From Promineifilum sp. (GTDB taxonomy: Bacteria > Chloroflexota > Anaerolineae > Promineifilales > Promineifilaceae), in contig JAGOZU010000002.1 in the NCBI GenBank assembly GCA_018058545.1, forward strand, positions 6,231 through 70,230: a DNA stretch of 64,000 nt, read 5' to 3'. The position numbers and the translations under genes were made by a program. Positions 1 through 61,226 of this stretch are shown piece by piece; the first letter of the stretch is position 1; every line of letters starts with the position of its first letter. The notes under the pieces were generated by a model. That model made no database searches and was not told the DNA's origin. It saw only the letters and a list, made by a program, of their open reading frames with translations.

Positions 1-468
1 CAGGAAGATGGCCGGGATATGGGAATGACCCACCAGGCAGGCAGGCGTGTCGAAATAGGCGAAATTTTCCAGCGCCGTCTGCAAGTCGAGGATGTACTCC
101 CACACCGGATGGCGTGGGCTGGCATGAGCCAGAGTGAAGGGAGGAGCCACGCTCAAGGGCGGCAGTCCGTCAAGATAGGCCCGGTTCTCCGCGGTCAGCG
201 TCTTGCGCGTCCAGTTGACGGCCCAGCGCGCGTCGTCGTTGAACTCCTCGGTGTCCAGCTTGCCGAGCACGGCCCAGTCGTGATTGCCCGACAAAGCGAC
301 CGCCGGCTCCAGTTCGCACAGCCGCTCGACGCATTCATTAGGATTCGGGCCATAGCCGATCAGATCGCCCAGAAACCAAAGGCGTTCCCAACGGCCACGG
401 GCGTCTTCAAGCACGGCTTCAAGGGCGACCCAATTGGCGTGAATATCAGAGAGAATCAGGGTTCGCAT
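1..468 (-). CDS. Metallophosphoesterase (YfcE/calcineurin-like), 3' end runs off the window
   Basis: Not in the ORF track. My translation of the minus strand from ATG at 468 gives MRTLILSDIHANWVALEAVL...FLGDLIGYGPNPNECV...LSGNHD...HASP...GHSH, i.e. the DxH, GDxxxxG, GNHD and GHSH metallophosphatase motifs. Confidence 0.9.
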   Translation of the reverse strand, partial: MRTLILSDIHANWVALEAVLEDARGRWERLWFLGDLIGYGPNPNECVERLCELEPAVALSGNHDWAVLGKLDTEEFNDDARWAVNWTRKTLTAENRAYLDGLPPLSVAPPFTLAHASPRHPVWEYILDLQTALENFAYFDTPACLVGHSHIPAIFL

Positions 469-689
469 GAGAGTTAATGACTACCGGTTGACGATATGTG
501 TTCGATGAATAGCAGGTTGATGCGCCACGGTTCATTCTTCGGATGCGTATATCATACCATCAAAGTATAATTGACGATCAAGCTTGCGATAATGCCGGTT
601 TCATGGTCGGCTCATGTCGGCTCGCAACCGGGACAGGTTGCGCAAGAGTGACTATTATAAGGATAACGAGTTAGGGCTTTCTCAAGCAT

Positions 690-1190
690 ATGGCGATCCT
701 GGACGAGCGAACGCTGGATTTTGTCAGCACAAGCCTGGCCCAGACAGAGCGCCTGGGCATTCGCCTGGGCGAATTGCTGGAGCCGCGCGACTTTGTTTGC
801 CTGTCGGGAGAGTTGGGCGCGGGCAAGACGGCGTTGGCCCGAGGCATCGGTCGCGGCTGGGGGACCCCTCTGCGCGTCACCAGCCCGACGTTCGTGCTGG
901 TCAATGAATACCCCCGCCCCAACGATGGCTGCATTCTCTACCACATTGATTGCTACCGGTTGGAGCGCGCGGCCGATGTCGAAAGCGCCGGCCTGGTGGA
1001 TATCTTCGACAGCGACGCGGCGGTCATGGTCGAATGGCCGGAGCATATTGTCGATCTGCTGCCCGCCGACCGTCTGTGGATCGGCATGATCTATGACAGC
1101 CCCACGCGCCGCCGGATGCGCATCAGCGCCACGGGAGAGCGCTCGTCCGTCCTGCTCGTTGATTTTCGCAAGAACGCTTTTGGCGTCTGA
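690..1190 (+). CDS. tsaE: tRNA t6A biosynthesis ATPase TsaE
   Basis: GELGAGKT Walker A, SPTF, YHIDCYRL and VEW motifs; adjacent to tsaB. Confidence 0.95.
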   Translation: MAILDERTLDFVSTSLAQTERLGIRLGELLEPRDFVCLSGELGAGKTALARGIGRGWGTPLRVTSPTFVLVNEYPRPNDGCILYHIDCYRLERAADVESAGLVDIFDSDAAVMVEWPEHIVDLLPADRLWIGMIYDSPTRRRMRISATGERSSVLLVDFRKNAFGV

Positions 1191-11200: not shown

Positions 11201-11836
11201 CAAACAACGGCCGCCGGGCAGCAGTGGGCCGCGGCAACGGGACAGAGTACGGCGACGATCTCGCCGCCGAGTCAGGCCTGCGACGGCAACACGCCACGAC
11301 CGCGAGCGGAGATCACCCGGCCGCGCAACGAAAACGACGCCCTCGACCGCGCCGCCATCGAGATCTGGGGCACGGCGCTGGGGCCAAACTATCAGGGTTA
11401 TCAGGTGGAGTTCGGTCTGGGACAGAATCCGGGCGGATGGGGGATGGTTCAGGAGCGGCGAGGCGAGTCGGTTCAGGACGGCTTGTTGGCGGTCTGGAAC
11501 GCTTCGCTGATCGACTATAGCGGCCCGGTGACTATCCGCGTCATCGTTTTCGGTCCGGACAATCCGTTCACGCCGGAGTTCGATCCGGTACAACAAGAGG
11601 GGCGCACGGTGTTTACCTTGCAGCCGGCGACACCCACGCCGACGGCCACCGCCACGGAGACGCCCACGGCGACGCCGACCGCGACGATGACGACGACGCC
11701 TTCACCCACGCCGACGGTCACCGAGACGCCGACGGCGACGATGACACTGCCGGTTCCGGCGACGCTGCCGGTGTCGACCCCGGAGCCGCCGACGGCCGAA
11801 CCGCCGACGGTCGTGCCGCCGACGGCGTATCCCTAA
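8213..11836 (+). CDS. Class A penicillin-binding protein (PBP1A-like) with long Pro-rich N-terminal tail and Pro/Thr C-terminal tail
   Basis: GT51 motifs EDQRFY, GTSTITQQL, RKVREI, YLNEIYYG. Transpeptidase motifs GSAIK (SxxK), SYN and KTG. One TM segment near residue 270. Confidence 0.92.
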   Translation: MQDDKDRKSEQESTGEGRRSSPLQPYQKPANPPEEPETISLLDLMAEQAEEQGRETPPLPPEVQTVQLPPLVVSNPPIRPSATDIPADDDDQNTPTATIRPPGEQRPPASQGRTERPLAQEELRPPETTPTIDDTEATKVQPRVAFPGATQLRPPGASVPPASPPTVTKPPSEEPTQVRPRPGASPARPQPQQPPQGEWPRQPVREQPQRPPQAQPQRQQRPPAPPPTRPPAPSQAAPSRAKSSQAAPPPVHTKARRPMTIGRIFRGFLLTLLAIFVGALLVASGAAIIYSVVARDLPRPSELRNRASTFETARIYDRDGQLLYAMADPSTGNRTYVPLSHISSWLIQATIDTEDQRFYENPGFDVISLVRAVVMAARNQEAVAGTSTITQQLVRATLLGEDERIERTYRRKVREIILAAEISRTYSKDEILELYLNEIYYGSLAYGIEAAANTFFNKSAADLTLSEASLLAGLPQSPAQWDPYTAPDKALGRQREVLSLMVANGHITLEDAQAALDDMAARVNSLERPQVTIRHPHFTFTVLQQAEELLGAQSIYRGGLSIRTTLDPGAQQLAEEAVAAHRDLLASGGANNASLVVLQPQTGEIMAMVGSADFNNEAISGQVNMALAPRQAGSAIKPLVYLSAFERGWTPATLLWDVQTEFPDGANPPYIPKNYDDEFHGPVRIRPALGNSYNIPAVKAMEFVGVCNFINNMQKVGMTSLQDDGCLEAGQPRSHGLSLALGAGELPPLQMAGAFGALANGGRYIAPYAITRIEDRNGNVLYDNLSPAATAPQAVRPEHAFLLSSILSDNNARLEEFGPNNLLDIPGYQVAVKTGTSGTSADDVRDGWTVGYAPQVLATVWVGNTDNRPIGAGQSGYRLAAPIWNRFMTSYLAGREALGFARPPGVVDREVCADTGVAVDATSTCVVRVNESFAADQPPQSASMGITRMAIDLWTGLQANPACTEAVYEGTFGGGVPVNGNPDVLERERALATNWMQTTAAGQQWAAATGQSTATISPPSQACDGNTPRPRAEITRPRNENDALDRAAIEIWGTALGPNYQGYQVEFGLGQNPGGWGMVQERRGESVQDGLLAVWNASLIDYSGPVTIRVIVFGPDNPFTPEFDPVQQEGRTVFTLQPATPTPTATATETPTATPTATMTTTPSPTPTVTETPTATMTLPVPATLPVSTPEPPTAEPPTVVPPTAYP

Positions 11837-31491: not shown

Positions 31492-31516
31492 ATCGAATCG
31501 AGGTTCATAGGTTCTT

Positions 31517-31551
31517 CATTCGAAATTCGACATTCGTCATTCGTCATTGGG
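31517..31551. repeat. Heptamer tandem array between dnaB and dnaD
   Basis: cattcga aattcga cattcgt cattcgt cattggg. Confidence 0.85.
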
Positions 31552-31561
31552 AAGTCATGAT

Positions 31562-32290: not shown

Positions 32291-33674
32291 CCCCGATGGT
32301 GGCCGTCGGGACGACGGCGGCCATCGCAACGATGGCGACCATCGCAACGATGGCGACCATCGCAACGATGGCGGCATCGGCCGGCCGGACTGCCCCCACT
32401 GCGGCGGCCTGGGTTACGTCCTGCCCGCCGTGGGGCCGGATGACCCGGGCTTTGGTCGTGCCGTGGTCTGTGTCTGCCGCGCGGCCGATCTGGAGAGCAA
32501 GCGCCTCCGGGATGTCATTGGCGTCACCCAGGCGGGCATGCTGGAGGAGATGACTTTCGATAGCTTCATGACCGATCCCGGCGGTCTGACGGCGGCCGAA
32601 AAAAACAGTCTGAAGATGGCCCGACGCGAGGCCGAGGCCTTCGCCGAGAACCCGGCGGGCTGGTTGCTATTGCGTGGCGGCTACGGCTGCGGCAAGACCC
32701 ATTTGGCGGCGGCCGTCGCCAACTATCGCCTGCAACATGGTCAGGTGGTGCTCTTCCTGACCGCGCCCGATTTGCTCGACCATCTGCGGGCTACGTTCGG
32801 CCCCGATTCGGCCGTCAGCTATGACGATCGATTTGAACAGGTTCGCAACGCGCCGCTGCTTATCCTCGACGACTTTGGCGCACAGAGCAACACCGCCTGG
32901 GCCGACGAAAAATTCTATCAGATCATCAACCATCGCTATGTCCTGCGCCTGCCGACAGTCATCACCACCAATCTCGATGAAGAGGATTTCGAGCCACGTT
33001 TGCGCTCGCGCCTGGGGCATGTCGGCAATCAGGGCGTGGTGAAACTGGTGGAGATCAGCTCGCGCGATTTCCGTCACGGCACGCATCTGTCCGACCTGTC
33101 GACGCTGAATCTCCATGCCGACAAGACCTTCAATACGTTCGACCTTCGCGAGACCGAGCTGCCGAAGGCGCAGGCCGATAATCTGCGGCGAGCGCTGGAG
33201 CTGGCGGTGGCTTTTGCCGACCAGCCGGAAGGTTGGCTGGTGTTTAACAGTGTGGCCTATGCCAACGGCAAGACTCATCTGGCGGCGGCCATCGCCAACT
33301 ATGTGGCCGATGACGGCGAGCCGGTGCTGTTTGTGGTTGTGCCCGACCTGCTGGACTATCTGCGGGCGTCCTTCAGCCCCAGCAGCCAGAGCCGGCTGGA
33401 CAAGCGGTTCGATGAGGTGAAGCGCGCGCCGCTGCTGGTGCTGGACGATTTGGGCACGGAGAGCGCCACGGCCTGGGCGCGCGAGAAGCTCTACCAGCTC
33501 TTTAACTATCGCTATAACGCGCAACTGCCGACGGTGATCACCACGGCCGTGCCGATTGAGCAGATCGATCCGCGTCTGGCGTCACGGATGCTGGACGGCC
33601 GCCGCTGCACGTTCTTCGTACTGGAGGCCCCCAGCTATCGCGGAAAGGGCAAGCAAAAGCCAAGAAGACGATAG
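32211..33674 (+). CDS. DnaC/DnaI/IstB-like helicase-loader ATPase with Zn-binding N-terminus and two tandem AAA+ domains
   Basis: CPHCGG...CVC. Domain 1: GGYGCGKT, LILDDFG, ITTN. Domain 2: AYANGKT, LVLDDLG, ITT. Start placed at ATG 32211 (SD-like GGAAGG); 32268 is the alternative. Confidence 0.85.
   Translation: MRSANEILNGTSNGKSRPNMTTSSNANPDGGRRDDGGHRNDGDHRNDGDHRNDGGIGRPDCPHCGGLGYVLPAVGPDDPGFGRAVVCVCRAADLESKRLRDVIGVTQAGMLEEMTFDSFMTDPGGLTAAEKNSLKMARREAEAFAENPAGWLLLRGGYGCGKTHLAAAVANYRLQHGQVVLFLTAPDLLDHLRATFGPDSAVSYDDRFEQVRNAPLLILDDFGAQSNTAWADEKFYQIINHRYVLRLPTVITTNLDEEDFEPRLRSRLGHVGNQGVVKLVEISSRDFRHGTHLSDLSTLNLHADKTFNTFDLRETELPKAQADNLRRALELAVAFADQPEGWLVFNSVAYANGKTHLAAAIANYVADDGEPVLFVVVPDLLDYLRASFSPSSQSRLDKRFDEVKRAPLLVLDDLGTESATAWAREKLYQLFNYRYNAQLPTVITTAVPIEQIDPRLASRMLDGRRCTFFVLEAPSYRGKGKQKPRRR
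32311..32379. repeat. 18-bp minisatellite (~3.8 copies) in the dnaC-like 5' region
   Basis: acgacggcggccatcgca acgatggcgaccatcgca acgatggcgaccatcgca acgatggcggcatcg. Confidence 0.92.
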
Positions 33675-33686
33675 AGGCGCGCTCCC

Positions 33687-33721
33687 CATTCGTCATTCGT
33701 CATTCGTAATTCGTAATTTCC
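33687..33721. repeat. Heptamer tandem array after the dnaC-like gene
   Basis: cattcgt cattcgt cattcgt aattcgt aatttcc. Confidence 0.9.
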
Positions 33722-59090: not shown

Positions 59091-61226
59091 TTAGGGCACG
59101 ACAACCAGCGGCGGTGATGGCGCCGAGGTTTCACTGCCGTTTGCTACCGGCAATCGCACCTCCGAGGCGCGGTCATACAGGCCGACAATGACGGCGTAAT
59201 CGCCGGGCGCGGCCGATTCCGGCACGCGCATCGGGTGAATCTGGGCGATCAGCTCGCCCGTACGCCAGGCCCATGACGGCGCGTCCAGCCGGTCGCTCTG
59301 GGCCAGGATGCCGCCCGCGCCGTCGAGCACGTGGGCGAACATCACCGCGTCGGTGGTGAAGCTGGGGGGCACGACCGGCCCGGCTCGTGTCGGGTCGAGC
59401 ACGCGCCAGACGGTCAGCAGTTCGGCCGTCTCCCCCGGGCGGACGCTATCCGACAGCCAGCGCGCGGCCGTCAGTTCAATCGCCCCGTTGAAATCGACCG
59501 GTTGGGCCAGCGCACTCCCGGCCGTTAATGTCGTCGCCGCCGGCGAGCCGTCGAGCCGGTAGAGTGTGAAGCGCGGATCGAGATCGTCCGGCCGCAGATC
59601 GACGGTTTCGATGGCTTGCAGCAGGGGGATGAACGCCGGATGCGGCGGCGTGGAGGCGGGGATGACGGCCAGCGTTCGCGCCGGCGGCAATACCAGCGCG
59701 TAGCGACCATCGACCCAGCGGGCTGTCTCGCCGACGGGCGGATGGTCGGCGGCCGTGACCAGGGCGATGGATGAGTCGTGGGCCGGGCCGGGATAGACGG
59801 TGGAGAAGAGGACAGGGTCGGCGTCGGAGTAGTTGGCCGTCACATGCCGGATCGACTCAACCAGTGTGTGCTGGTAGGCCCCGCGAACCTCGGGCGACTC
59901 GCCCCAGCGTATGAAATAATCGCGCCCGGAGACAAAAGCGACCCAAAGAACCAGGAGGAGAGAGAGGGAGACGGGGAGACGGGGAGCTGGGGAGCGGGGG
60001 AGCGGAGGAGCGCCCCTGCCCCTCTGCTCCTCTGCTCCCCAGCCCCTCATCACTCCTGCAGCGACGATTAAATACACCGCCGGCAGCGCGGCCATGTTAC
60101 GCGTGGTGTTGGCCGTCGGGCCGGTGACGAGCGACGGGACGATGCCCGCCAGAAACCACAGCAGCAGAAAGGCATGGGCCGGCTGCCGCAGGCGCACGAG
60201 GCAAACGACCAGCCCGATGACGAAGAAGACGGCCGAGACGATATCCAGCACCGGCCGCCCGGGGATATTGTAGGCCAGGAACGTATCGCCAAAGCCGGGC
60301 CAGACGAAGGCCAGCAGCGCGTCGCGGACATTGAGCAGGATGGGGACGAAGTTGCCCGCGCGGACGGCTCCCAGCGGGCCGTCGAACATGTCCAGCCGCG
60401 TCTGCATCTCCGGATGGGCGCGCAGGTAAAGGAACATCGGCGCGACCAGCAGCCCGGCCAGCAACAGCCCCGCCAGCACCGGCCGCCATGACCGACGGAA
60501 GGCCGATCGATGGAACAGCGCCAGATAGGCCATGAACGCCGGAAACATCAGCCAGCTCACCCGCGCCGCCAGATAGGTGTGGAACGTCAGGGCGACGGCC
60601 AGGCCAAAGAGGATGACGAATGACGAGCGACGAGTGACGAGCGGGGAACGGGGTGTGGAAATGCTCCCCTGCTCCTCCGCTCCCCTGCTCCCGCGCTCAT
60701 TCGTCATTCCGAGAATTTTCCAAAAGGCCCACACCGCCAACAGGGTGAAGAACGGCAACATGCCGACCCGCAGCGCCTCGCGGCTGGAAGCCAGCGGCCA
60801 GAAGGAGACAGCCATCAGCGCCGAAGCCAACAGAGCCGTGGCGCGGCCGAACCGCGGGGAGGCCCAGGCACAGGTCAGAGCGATGGCCAGCGTGCCGAAG
60901 GCGACGTTGACCAGCCGCAGGGCGAACAAGCCACGGCCGAACAGAGCCATGAACAGGGCCACGGTATAGCTGTAGAGCGGCTCGCTGCCGTAGTTGAGCG
61001 GGAAGAAGTAGAGGAGGACGCCGTTGAGGATGCCGATGGCCTCGCGGCCGTGGTTGGCCTCGTCGTGGGTCAGCCCCGGCGGGATTCCGGTCAGGTTCCA
61101 GACGCGCAGGGCGAAGGCGACGAGAAGAATGATGAGGAGCAGAGGAGCAGGGGAACGGAGGAGAGAGGAACTAACTGCTCTCCCTTTTCTCCCTTCACCG
61201 CTTTCCCTCCGCGCCCCATGCGTCAT
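59091..61226 (-). CDS. GT39/ArnT-like (PMT-type) multi-TM glycosyltransferase
   Basis: ALRVWNL...PPGLTHDEA.HG, R...A.FGTL, multiple TMs, and a C-terminal FAHVLD...QSD...W..GE domain. Confidence 0.8.
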   Translation of the reverse strand: MTHGARRESGEGRKGRAVSSSLLRSPAPLLLIILLVAFALRVWNLTGIPPGLTHDEANHGREAIGILNGVLLYFFPLNYGSEPLYSYTVALFMALFGRGLFALRLVNVAFGTLAIALTCAWASPRFGRATALLASALMAVSFWPLASSREALRVGMLPFFTLLAVWAFWKILGMTNERGSRGAEEQGSISTPRSPLVTRRSSFVILFGLAVALTFHTYLAARVSWLMFPAFMAYLALFHRSAFRRSWRPVLAGLLLAGLLVAPMFLYLRAHPEMQTRLDMFDGPLGAVRAGNFVPILLNVRDALLAFVWPGFGDTFLAYNIPGRPVLDIVSAVFFVIGLVVCLVRLRQPAHAFLLLWFLAGIVPSLVTGPTANTTRNMAALPAVYLIVAAGVMRGWGAEEQRGRGAPPLPRSPAPRLPVSLSLLLVLWVAFVSGRDYFIRWGESPEVRGAYQHTLVESIRHVTANYSDADPVLFSTVYPGPAHDSSIALVTAADHPPVGETARWVDGRYALVLPPARTLAVIPASTPPHPAFIPLLQAIETVDLRPDDLDPRFTLYRLDGSPAATTLTAGSALAQPVDFNGAIELTAARWLSDSVRPGETAELLTVWRVLDPTRAGPVVPPSFTTDAVMFAHVLDGAGGILAQSDRLDAPSWAWRTGELIAQIHPMRVPESAAPGDYAVIVGLYDRASEVRLPVANGSETSAPSPPLVVVP
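59963..60048. repeat. Inverted arrays of an 8-mer inside the GT39 CDS
   Basis: acggggag acggggag ctggggag cgggggag cggaggag | cgcccctg cccctctg ctcctctg ctccccag. Confidence 0.85.
60611..60709. repeat. Composite 7-mer/8-mer element inside the GT39 CDS (99 bp)
   Basis: atgacga x2, gcgacga, gtgacga, then gctcccct-type 8-mers x4, closed by cattcgtcattc (inverse of the left end). Confidence 0.85.
61134..61217. repeat. Degenerate inverted 8-mer arrays at the GT39 5' end
   Basis: gaggagca gaggagca ggggaacg gaggagag ... ctgctctc ccttttct cccttcac cgctttcc ctccgcgc. Confidence 0.7.

Follow-up and report, generated by a model that had tools for sequence, protein, structure and literature searches.

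Why should the gene of a conserved membrane enzyme carry, within its reading frame, three stretches assembled from 7- and 8-nucleotide repeats? This question is raised by a 64,000-nucleotide stretch of Promineifilum sp. DNA (hereafter the window; assembly GCA_018058545.1, contig JAGOZU010000002.1, C78:6231-70230), which belongs to a 3.6-Mb draft genome of 185 contigs with 61% GC. The gene encodes a GT-C glycosyltransferase of the GT39 family, and its three repeat elements are numbered here as sites 1 to 3 from the N-terminus of the protein. Our overall reading, which we consider probable, is that the elements are gene-less passenger hairpins that are translated with their host and belong to a repeat class that resembles the short tandemly repeated repetitive (STRR) sequences of cyanobacteria and is linked to cassettes of the intervening sequence (IVS) type. 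The parts of this reading differ in strength. That dispersed, fast-evolving repeat hairpins were inserted into the gene and are tolerated in frame is very likely; that the GT39 hairpins derive from cassettes encoding an IVS protein (IVP) by loss of the open reading frame (ORF) is proposed tentatively, as a possibility deserving serious consideration.

The original prediction had described three in-frame stretches of 7-mers and 8-mers in this gene, and both TRF and a repeat finder recovered them (Table 1), with 0.00 expected in shuffled sequences. Overall, the units are octamers of the form GRGGAGCN and heptamers of the form ATKACGA. A pattern of three octamer units (GRGGAGCNGRGGAGCNGRGGAGC), with at most two mismatches, matched 10 times in the window, always within the GT39 gene, and three successive ATKACGA units with at most three mismatches matched nine times, at 31513-31554, 33683-33717, and 60613-60640; the expectation by chance was 0.00 for each pattern (100 shuffles). 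The intergenic heptamer arrays that had been placed at 31517 and 33687 are equally real, and the first of them belongs to the same family as the outer arms of the site 2 element. Each element had also been described as a purine-rich arm followed by a pyrimidine-rich or inverted one. In all three, a purine-rich arm is indeed followed by a short spacer and a pyrimidine-rich arm, but the N-terminal hairpin is the weakest, and its pyrimidine arm is only loosely octameric. On the plus strand, site 3 comprises a G-rich arm of six GGGGAGNN units (~59963-60012) and a C-rich arm of four to five CTGCYCCY units (~60013-60056); its inverted arms (59973-60011 and 60018-60056), each of 39 nt and separated by 6 nt, show 77% complementarity. 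Site 2 is nested, with outer heptamer arms (ATGACGA ... TCGTCAT) enclosing inner octamer arms (GGGGAGCA ... CCCCGYT) around a loop of 8-12 nt. Site 1, read on the gene strand, begins as a purine-rich stretch and continues as loose TGCTCCYC octamers, the start codon lying within an ATGACGC unit. Single-strand folding gave -27.3 kcal/mol for site 2 (z = -3.9; 0 of 200 shuffles were equally good), -28.8 kcal/mol for site 3 (z = -1.9), and a weak -17.5 kcal/mol for site 1 (z = -1.4). The inverted arms of the elements are able to form a stem, and no ORF lies in the loops of 6-12 nt between them.

The low-complexity peptides quoted in the original prediction are present in the translation, RGWGAEEQR and GSRGAEEQGSISTPR being the peptides predicted from read-through, and the pyrimidine arm of site 1 codes for the beginning of transmembrane (TM) helix 1 (SPAPLLLIILLV). 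Site 1 forms the N-terminal tail; sites 2 and 3 occupy loops between TM helices, and site 3 lies ahead of the final TM helix, beyond which comes the extracytoplasmic C-terminal domain. In an AlphaFold2 model of the protein built on 23 orthologues (pTM 0.73), three stretches of low confidence (pLDDT < 50 at residues 1-23, 178-195, and 400-413) coincide with sites 1, 2, and 3. Given that the empty sites 2 and 3 are Arg-rich, as the positive-inside rule would have it, and that site 1 is a cytoplasmic N-terminal tail, all three sites are probably cytoplasmic. The elements are translated as low-complexity linker peptides in structurally permissive, disordered segments of a conserved enzyme. The match of this enzyme to Pfam PMT_2 lies just above the cut-off (E = 9.9e-6; 26.3 bits against 26.1), its orthologues match PF02366 and PF13231, and it has 635 homologues, the best of which (94% identity) are named as members of the GT39/ArnT family and occur in metagenome-assembled genomes (MAGs) of Candidatus Promineifilum/Promineofilum. 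Because a sequence search of the PDB with the orthologue profile returned no match at E < 0.001, a fold search was required, and Foldseek assigned the model to the GT-C fold through AglB, ArnT (5f15), and STT3 (E of 1e-8 to 1e-7), with further matches to ArnT (5ezm), EmbB, and Pmt1-Pmt2. The acidic motif of the first extracytoplasmic loop is present as T53-HDEANHGREA-63, which follows TM1 and is invariant in the homologue alignment. An Rfam scan of the 64-kb window at gathering thresholds gave 0 matches, and the window contains no rRNA.

Table 1. Repeat elements, their host gene, and mobile DNA considered in the text. Positions given without a contig label are those of the window.
Feature	Position	Strand	Remarks
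GT-C (GT39/PMT_2, ArnT-like) membrane glycosyltransferase	59091..61226	-	Intact 711-aa ORF, conserved
Site 1 element, N-terminal	61131..61226	-	Residues 1-32; encodes MTHGARRESGEGRKGRAVSSSLLRSPAPLL; runs into TM helix 1
Site 2 element, nested composite hairpin, 99 nt	60611..60709	-	Residues ~174-206; encodes MTNERGSRGAEEQGSISTPRSPLVTRRSSFV
Site 3 element, octamer hairpin	59955..60056	-	Residues ~391-424; encodes RGWGAEEQRGRGAPPLPRSPAPRLPV
Period-8 array GGGGAGCG	59966-60012		TRF and repeat finder
Period-8 array CTGCCCCT	60016-60048		TRF and repeat finder
Period-8 array TGCTCCCC	60662-60698		TRF and repeat finder
Period-8 array GAGGAGCA x4.6	61134-61169		TRF and repeat finder
Period-7 array TGACGAG	60614-60641		TRF and repeat finder
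Intergenic heptamer array TTCGTCA x5.3	31512..31548	+	Immediately precedes a + strand start codon
Intergenic heptamer array CATTCGT x4.6	33687..33718	+	Just past a stop codon
IVP cassette with octamer arms	C179:1713-2246		Between GCV_T and amino-oxidase genes
IVP context loci	L122-L125, L127-L128, L134-L137		
RAYT-like Y1 transposase	C156:158-802	-	PF01797, E = 2.9e-6
RAYT-like Y1 transposase	C110:~215-850	+	
IS3-like element ends	C29:1-175, C38:1-180, C108:1-205, C136:1-170		Four contig ends

The expectation that the three segments would prove to be indels was borne out by an alignment of 120 homologues, complemented by the DNA of three orthologues (L119, L120, and L121). As judged from this alignment, the segments are lineage-specific insertions relative to distant orthologues. 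Homologues of at least ~61% identity, which constitute the Promineifilum clade, carry repeat-derived peptides at the three sites, with site lengths of 27-94 aa, whereas nearly all homologues of at most 60% identity have short, repeat-free segments there. In distant orthologues the N-terminus measures ~14 aa (MTRKLLP...), compared with 36 aa in the window protein, and site 2 measures ~19-40 aa; site 3 is 38-40 aa long in these orthologues, 47 aa in the window protein, and up to 94 aa in congeners. The site peptides of congeners are frame translations of short tandem DNA units (ITNYELRITNEE, MTNDELRMTNEE, TSDELRVTSEE, DTKYEIRDTKEE, TADGRPPTADRR, MTNDELR, SSFVTRHSS, RGAGEQRSRG, SPAPLLP, LLPFSPAP, DTKYEIRDTK, HAKDAKGAK...SLRSWRE or HAKDAKGAK...LRSWRE, and TADGRPPT). 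At the DNA level, L119 (95% nt identity) keeps all three elements and differs only in the site 2 loop, which has been replaced and is 9 nt longer. L120 and L121 carry other unit families at the same sites, namely (GTTACGA)n with octamers, (AGACCAC)n, and (GACGRAC)n, together with (ATTACGA)4-ATGAAGAG-spacer-(TCGTATC)4. Since the outer arms of site 2 recur in many orthologues, including L120 and L121, while the inner content varies, new arrays appear to arise or insert in the centre of older hairpins. On this comparative evidence the elements turn over fast, with different unit families at the same sites in congeners and strain-dependent unit numbers in the arms.

Two further orthologues deserve mention in their own right. 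P0122, from the 90% cluster of the window protein, shares 94% of its residues with that protein and matches it exactly at sites 2 and 3. Its N-terminal 65 residues, however, differ; they include another repeat element (MSDLNTKNEIRDTKRTRAS...) and are the same as in P0012, a lineage of 70% identity. We did not use it as proof of element replacement, as the adjacent 60 residues differ too and the N-terminus is that of P0012; recombination or a chimeric contig at the 5' end is as likely. In one Promineofilum MAG (243-kb contig) the GT39 orthologue is split into ORFs of 491 aa and 303 aa (P0165/P0166, compared with P0036), and the change of frame, either a real slippage frameshift or an assembly error, begins at the start of the site-3 element.

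The elements of this gene belong to a dispersed family, as the original prediction had supposed. Genes were taken from our own crude codon-usage caller, which gave 2948 genes (88% coding) and reproduced the ORFs of the window. Genome-wide, TRF reported the heptamer units AATGACG (42 arrays), AATTACG (25), ACGAGTG (13), and AATTAGG (12), as well as the octamer units AGCAGGGG (14 arrays), AGAGGAGC (11), AGCGGGGG (7), and AGCGGAGG (7); after merging, the arrays form ~126 elements, of which 47 lie entirely within ~40 predicted genes. Heptamer arrays are strongly depleted from coding sequence (CDS), which holds 33 of 100 (p = 2e-37), and the other 67 are intergenic, although intergenic DNA makes up only 12% of the genome. 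Octamer arrays are mildly depleted (27/38 in CDS, p = 0.004). The intergenic arrays sit a few bases from stop or start codons and, where pure, reach 20 units. Arrays in genes mostly have their purine-rich strand as the sense strand, with sense-to-antisense ratios of 25:8 for heptamers (p = 0.005) and 20:7 for octamers (p = 0.02), and this orientation encodes hydrophilic TNDELR or RGAGEQ peptides. Because pure ATGACGA has a TGA in every frame, coding arrays mix in ATTACGA/ATGTCGA units with a 21-nt period. Whether coding copies have lengths divisible by three is uninformative, as this is forced by ORF survival.

The genes that host arrays encode ordinary enzymes, with the inserts placed between one Pfam domain and the next. 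The hosts include four further PMT/PMT_2/DUF2142-like GT-C proteins; in one of these, a paralogue, an octamer hairpin occupies the position corresponding to site 2. In two ABC exporters the insert separates the transmembrane domain from the nucleotide-binding domain. Also among the hosts are an SDR-hydratase (MFE-2-like) enzyme, a YqeC-MobA fusion, and an RlmI-like methyltransferase. Since soluble enzymes with inter-domain inserts are among them, the elements are not restricted to membrane-protein loops, contrary to what had been proposed; the host pattern fits insertion followed by purifying selection. Nor do they appear to be copies of a master sequence in the manner of miniature inverted-repeat transposable elements (MITEs) or Rickettsia palindromic elements (RPEs): inspection of the listed elements by eye revealed no shared internal sequence, as spacers and loops all differ and only the tandem units are common, and no target-site duplications or direct repeats at the element edges, where inverted arms are present and array boundaries are fuzzy.

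These genome-wide data also bear on the most sceptical explanation, which holds that the segments are codon-driven low-complexity loops, or else repetitive extragenic palindromes (REP/REPIN elements) spread by the RAYT (Y1 transposase) genes of the genome. Their peptides are indeed of low complexity, and two RAYT-like genes exist, located with Y1_Tnp query sequences. Nevertheless, the periodicity is 7 and 8 nt rather than 3, and the same units form long pure arrays in intergenic DNA, so that we regard this explanation as extremely improbable. A linked RAYT gene, which the original prediction had proposed to look for, was likewise rejected as the mobiliser of the arrays. Each of the two genes is embedded in its own tandem REP-like repeats (~40-nt and ~107-nt units), of which ~6 copies exist, all beside the gene and unlike the arrays, and no heptamer or octamer array of this genome adjoins either one.

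Could the arrays instead be adaptive? They might serve as contingency loci, in which the gain or loss of a single 7- or 8-nt unit shifts the frame and turns a surface-glycosylation enzyme off and on, or as mRNA hairpins (RNase III sites) that adjust its expression or vary its loops. Several features are compatible with such a role: the 7- and 8-nt units are not multiples of three, GT-C enzymes modify the envelope, which is often subject to phase variation, arrays are present in four or more further GT-C paralogues of this genome, the orthologue of one MAG is split by a frameshift beginning inside the site-3 element, and IVS stems are RNase III substrates (PMC4990558). However, the coding arrays are imperfect, with the commonest unit accounting for only ~42-53% of their units, which lowers slippage rates; elements of this kind are also found in housekeeping enzymes and intergenic DNA, with no functional theme; and what the sites contain varies between orthologues. 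The gene is intact in nearly all orthologues, and in the cluster examined in detail the split gene is found only in MAG IPH95, where assembly or sequencing errors are possible; we take this MAG to be long-read-based. An adaptive function is thus very unlikely.

The repeats extend far beyond this genome. An exact (ATKACGA)4 scan of 185,579 species genomes yielded at least 118 loci in at least eight phyla (Cyanobacteria, Verrucomicrobiota, Planctomycetota, Acidobacteriota, Bacteroidota, Chloroflexota, Bacillota, and Patescibacteria) and in Ignavibacteriales too. Among the matches listed, identical (ATKACGA)n arrays occur in Nostoc, Calothrix, Anabaena, and Planktothrix, and many loci are likewise convergently paired; in these matches and our own genome together, paired arrays are convergent in 27 cases and divergent in three (p = 8e-6). 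The suspected novelty in Chloroflexota was upheld in part. The literature yielded no description of such repeats in Chloroflexota/Chloroflexi or Anaerolineae, but the family is not specific to this phylum.

The closest relatives among known repeats are the STRR, as the original prediction had noted. The STRR of heterocystous cyanobacteria and bacterial long simple-sequence repeats (LSSRs) were reportedly described by Mazel in 1990 and Mrazek in 2007, both cited in PMC4679880. Like STRR and LSSRs (5-11-nt units), the present repeats consist of tandem 7-nt units at many loci, mostly intergenic near gene ends and variable in number between strains, and the Promineifilum unit ATTACGA/ATGACGA itself forms arrays in Nostocales. 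The heptamers are arranged head to tail, also within the gene (60614-60641), and are dispersed and mainly non-coding; the octamers fall outside the strict 7-nt definition and lie mostly in CDS. The original definition concerns heterocystous cyanobacteria, whereas the host here is a Promineifilum-like member of the Chloroflexota, and further differences are the octamers beside heptamers, the convergent nested hairpins, the ~40% of elements in frame within conserved genes, and the link to IVP cassettes. A second comparison, with RPEs, was only partly appropriate. RPEs, an element class attributed to Ogata in 2000, are said to insert in frame into protein genes. Both are palindromic selfish DNA tolerated in frame in conserved genes, where they add surface or loop peptides absent from orthologues. 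However, RPEs are discrete copies (~100-150 nt) of one consensus, whereas the elements described here have tandem arms of variable length and unique spacers, no whole-length consensus, and no sequence relationship to RPEs.

Other heptamer repeats provide further parallels. Heptanucleotide LSSRs occur in excess, as Mrazek (2007) is cited in PMC4679880, and GGGNATC repeats are known from Xanthomonas and Nostoc (PMC4692102). TAACTGA heptamers occur as direct repeats in Beggiatoaceae, Cyanobacteria, and Bacteroidetes with no known transfer mechanism, some copies lying at the periphery of ORFs (MacGregor 2015, PMC4679880). As with ATGACGA, one heptamer is shared by unrelated phyla, copies sit just upstream of starts or at stops, the forward orientation contains stops in all frames, and a minority lies within ORFs at the protein periphery. 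The unit differs, however, and the present repeats occupy internal loops and inter-domain linkers, form inverted pairs, and are accompanied by octamers; the role in translational regulation proposed in PMC4679880 does not fit in-frame copies. The GT39 case falls within a repeat class that is known yet poorly understood, and its nesting, turnover, and IVP-tied arms make it a particularly clear example.

The tie to IVP is provided by a cassette elsewhere in the draft (C179; Table 1). C179:1806-2210 encodes a PF05635 (IVP/S23p, four-helix-bundle) protein (E = 1.1e-29) with a weak bAvd-like match and an atypical coding score (11.7, against >130 for its neighbours), and has nine G-rich octamers (GGGTGCAG/GGGAGCAG) on one side and, on the other, five that are C-rich, all belonging to the GT39 unit family. 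The orthologous spacer, which separates the GCV_T gene from the amino-oxidase gene, is occupied in L122 (96% identity), L124 (83%), and L127 and L128, which are of the Ca. P. breve type, and empty in L123 (87%) and L125 (82%), where 22-23 nt are left, e.g., GGAGTGGAGGAGCAAC. The C179 protein is 70-72% identical to IVPs of Nostoc, Gloeothece, and Anaerolineae; as this is far above the expectation for vertical descent between phyla, it suggests transfer from phylum to phylum. One identical Nostoc IVP occurs in two unrelated contexts, beside a CheB-like gene and between PAAR and gp25 genes, and both times the order is a stop codon, G-rich octamers, ATG...TAA, and C-rich octamers, with strain-specific unit numbers. 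Unit numbers also differ between L127 and L128, and the arms abut the IVP start and stop codons alike in Promineifilum and Nostoc. The PAAR/gp25 context is a contractile-injection-system locus. The empty sites (L123:4201-4222 and L125:4204-4226) contain GGAGTGGAGGAGCA or CAGGAGCA, which are Shine-Dalgarno-like and resemble one to two octamer units; the G-rich arm itself resembles a tandem Shine-Dalgarno sequence, which could be a seed or a footprint of the cassette.

Heptamer arms also accompany IVP genes. Among the matches listed, an IVP-like ORF is present at 7 of the 118 loci, and in five of these seven, namely L060, L091 (Planctomycetota), L099 (Rikenellaceae), L102 (Acutalibacteraceae), and L111 (Dolichospermum), inverted heptamer arrays stand on either side of it. 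The IVP ORF starts with ATGAAGAG in L091 and L099. In our own genome, 12 of 67 forward heptamer arrays end exactly in this sequence and ~21 in near variants, and the cap is found only at the inner end of the forward arm. The polarity of the cap and the convergent bias are the leftovers to be expected of internal deletion in a cassette composed of an arm, an ORF, and the inverted arm. Telomerase-like addition to 3' ends was considered as a source of the convergent polarity and set aside, as it has no support beyond the polarity itself and ORF deletion explains both polarity and cap more simply.

The architecture of the C179 cassette recalls the 23S rRNA IVS of Leptospira and Coxiella, an element held to be selfish and described as unresolved in origin and mobility (PMC4990558). 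In both, inverted terminal repeats form a stem around a PF05635 ORF. The cassette differs in lying between protein genes rather than in rRNA and in having tandem octamers as arms. The GT39 elements differ further in that they lack an ORF and are translated and presumably not excised; the PF05635 ORF is found only in the C179 cassette. Since their loops of 6-12 nt hold no such ORF, the GT39 elements can at most be ORF-less derivatives of cassettes.

A different account of the same association is that the arrays are independent, self-propagating simple-sequence repeats of the STRR/LSSR kind, generated and homogenised by slippage, hairpin-driven template switching, or gene conversion, and that IVP cassettes and insertion sequences merely insert into hairpin centres; the GT39 elements would then not be IVP-derived. 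Insertion into hairpin centres does occur in this genome. At four contig ends (Table 1), C29 and C38 carry an rve-type C-terminus (...YNYDRPHLALGYRVPAEVH), and C108 and C136 an orfA start (MKRYSEAFKRQVV) on the reverse strand. The four ends share the terminal sequence TGATGTCAATCT(T)ATTTTAGGAC, and each abuts an outward-reading (TAATTCC)n array, so that an IS3-like element sits exactly between convergent AATTAGG arrays. Elhai is said to have described nested small dispersed repeats of Nostoc in 2008. IS1397 and ISKpn1 (IS3 family), as cited in PMC3116915, insert into the loops of REP palindromes, and the IS3-like element is placed much as IS1397 is there. The likeness to both systems lies in hairpin centres as preferred insertion sites and in nesting; it is an analogy of targeting only, leaving the origin of the arrays unexplained.

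The account based on self-propagation draws on this IS3-like element as an indication that hairpin centres attract other mobile DNA, on the nested arrays at the centres of older hairpins, on the lack of a nearby IVP at most of the arrays listed and the single IVP in the draft, and on the published view of heptamer repeats as slippage-prone LSSRs without an evident transfer mechanism (PMC4679880). Slippage alone, however, fails to explain a common 7-mer at ~100 loci and in many phyla. The shared abutment of arms on IVP start and stop codons in Promineifilum and Nostoc, the identical Nostoc IVP with the same arms in two contexts, and the identity of the forward-arm cap with the IVP ORF start also argue against it. 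We therefore consider independent self-propagation unlikely.

Passenger hairpins tied to IVP cassettes remain our preferred reading, and several points weigh against it. No movement of the elements was directly observed; mobility is indicated only indirectly, by comparison of sequences, through nesting, same-site turnover, presence and absence, and the IVP cassette found in two contexts with the same arms. Elements at the same site may reflect repeated insertion or a single old element with unit turnover. Among the matches listed, 111 of the 118 loci have no IVP gene within 8 kb, and our own draft has no heptamer-armed IVP, its sole IVP gene having octamer arms. IVP cassettes elsewhere occur in both arm orders, which leaves the 27:3 convergent bias of gene-less pairs not fully explained. 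Furthermore, IVP genes and the IS3-like element might merely target existing hairpins, and because ATGAAGA differs from ATGACGA by a single substitution, the cap might be a variant of the unit. The crudeness of our gene caller is a further weakness.

According to the mechanism that we propose, the elements would be selectively near-neutral passengers. Purifying selection would spare them only in loops, linkers, termini, and intergenic DNA and, within genes, would favour the orientation encoding hydrophilic peptides (TNDELR, RGAGEQ). Their arms would be the same as those bracketing a mobile cassette of the 23S-rRNA-IVS type (IVP/S23p, PF05635), a step with moderate support. The GT39 hairpins would represent miniature forms of such IVP cassettes that have lost the ORF, or else solo pairs of their arms, and would then lengthen or shorten by slipped-strand mispairing. 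In its widest form the idea is conceivable but doubtful: bacterial short tandem arrays, including STRR, TAACTGA, and the present hairpins, might all be arms, footprints, or ORF-less derivatives of one IVP/S23p cassette class. It is speculative, and on balance rather improbable, that this mobile class is the same element as the 23S rRNA IVS, built around an Avd-like IVP/S23p. Similarly, there is perhaps a limited chance that such cassettes routinely colonise coding sequence, with translated arms supplying even start codons, linkers, and the ends of TM helices.

If the proposed reading is true, repeat hairpins would steadily generate proteins of varying length, both in Promineifilum and across many other phyla; one enzyme holds three independent hot spots whose content varies among congeners, and ~40 genes are touched in the draft. 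There are practical consequences as well. The inserts lower Pfam scores, as seen in a host gene that barely passes PMT_2 and in many orthologues without a precomputed Pfam match; the arrays break contigs during assembly; and the segments appear as disordered inserts in structure prediction. The link between arms and IVP, with ~70% identity between Chloroflexota and Nostoc, offers a testable lead on the occurrence of the same repeats in unrelated phyla and on the origin of the rRNA IVS.

Some minor observations concern other sequences of the draft and the window. A reverse-transcriptase fragment at C96:17862-18572 (minus strand) has IGNLTSQ and RYVDDF motifs resembling those in the reverse transcriptases of diversity-generating retroelements. 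Its neighbours are a pair of PIN-like toxin genes, with no Avd gene noticed alongside it. Within the window, positions 32294-32379 hold a coding minisatellite of 18-nt (36-nt) palindromic units (ACGATGGCGACCATCGCA x3.5, 95% matches) that is unrelated to the 7- and 8-mer families. Overlapping repeats of periods 12, 18, 24, and 30 (CCACGCCGACGG-type) at 11625-11740, also coding, look like codon-periodic low complexity; with periods that are all multiples of three, they form a contrast to the arrays of 7- and 8-nt units.

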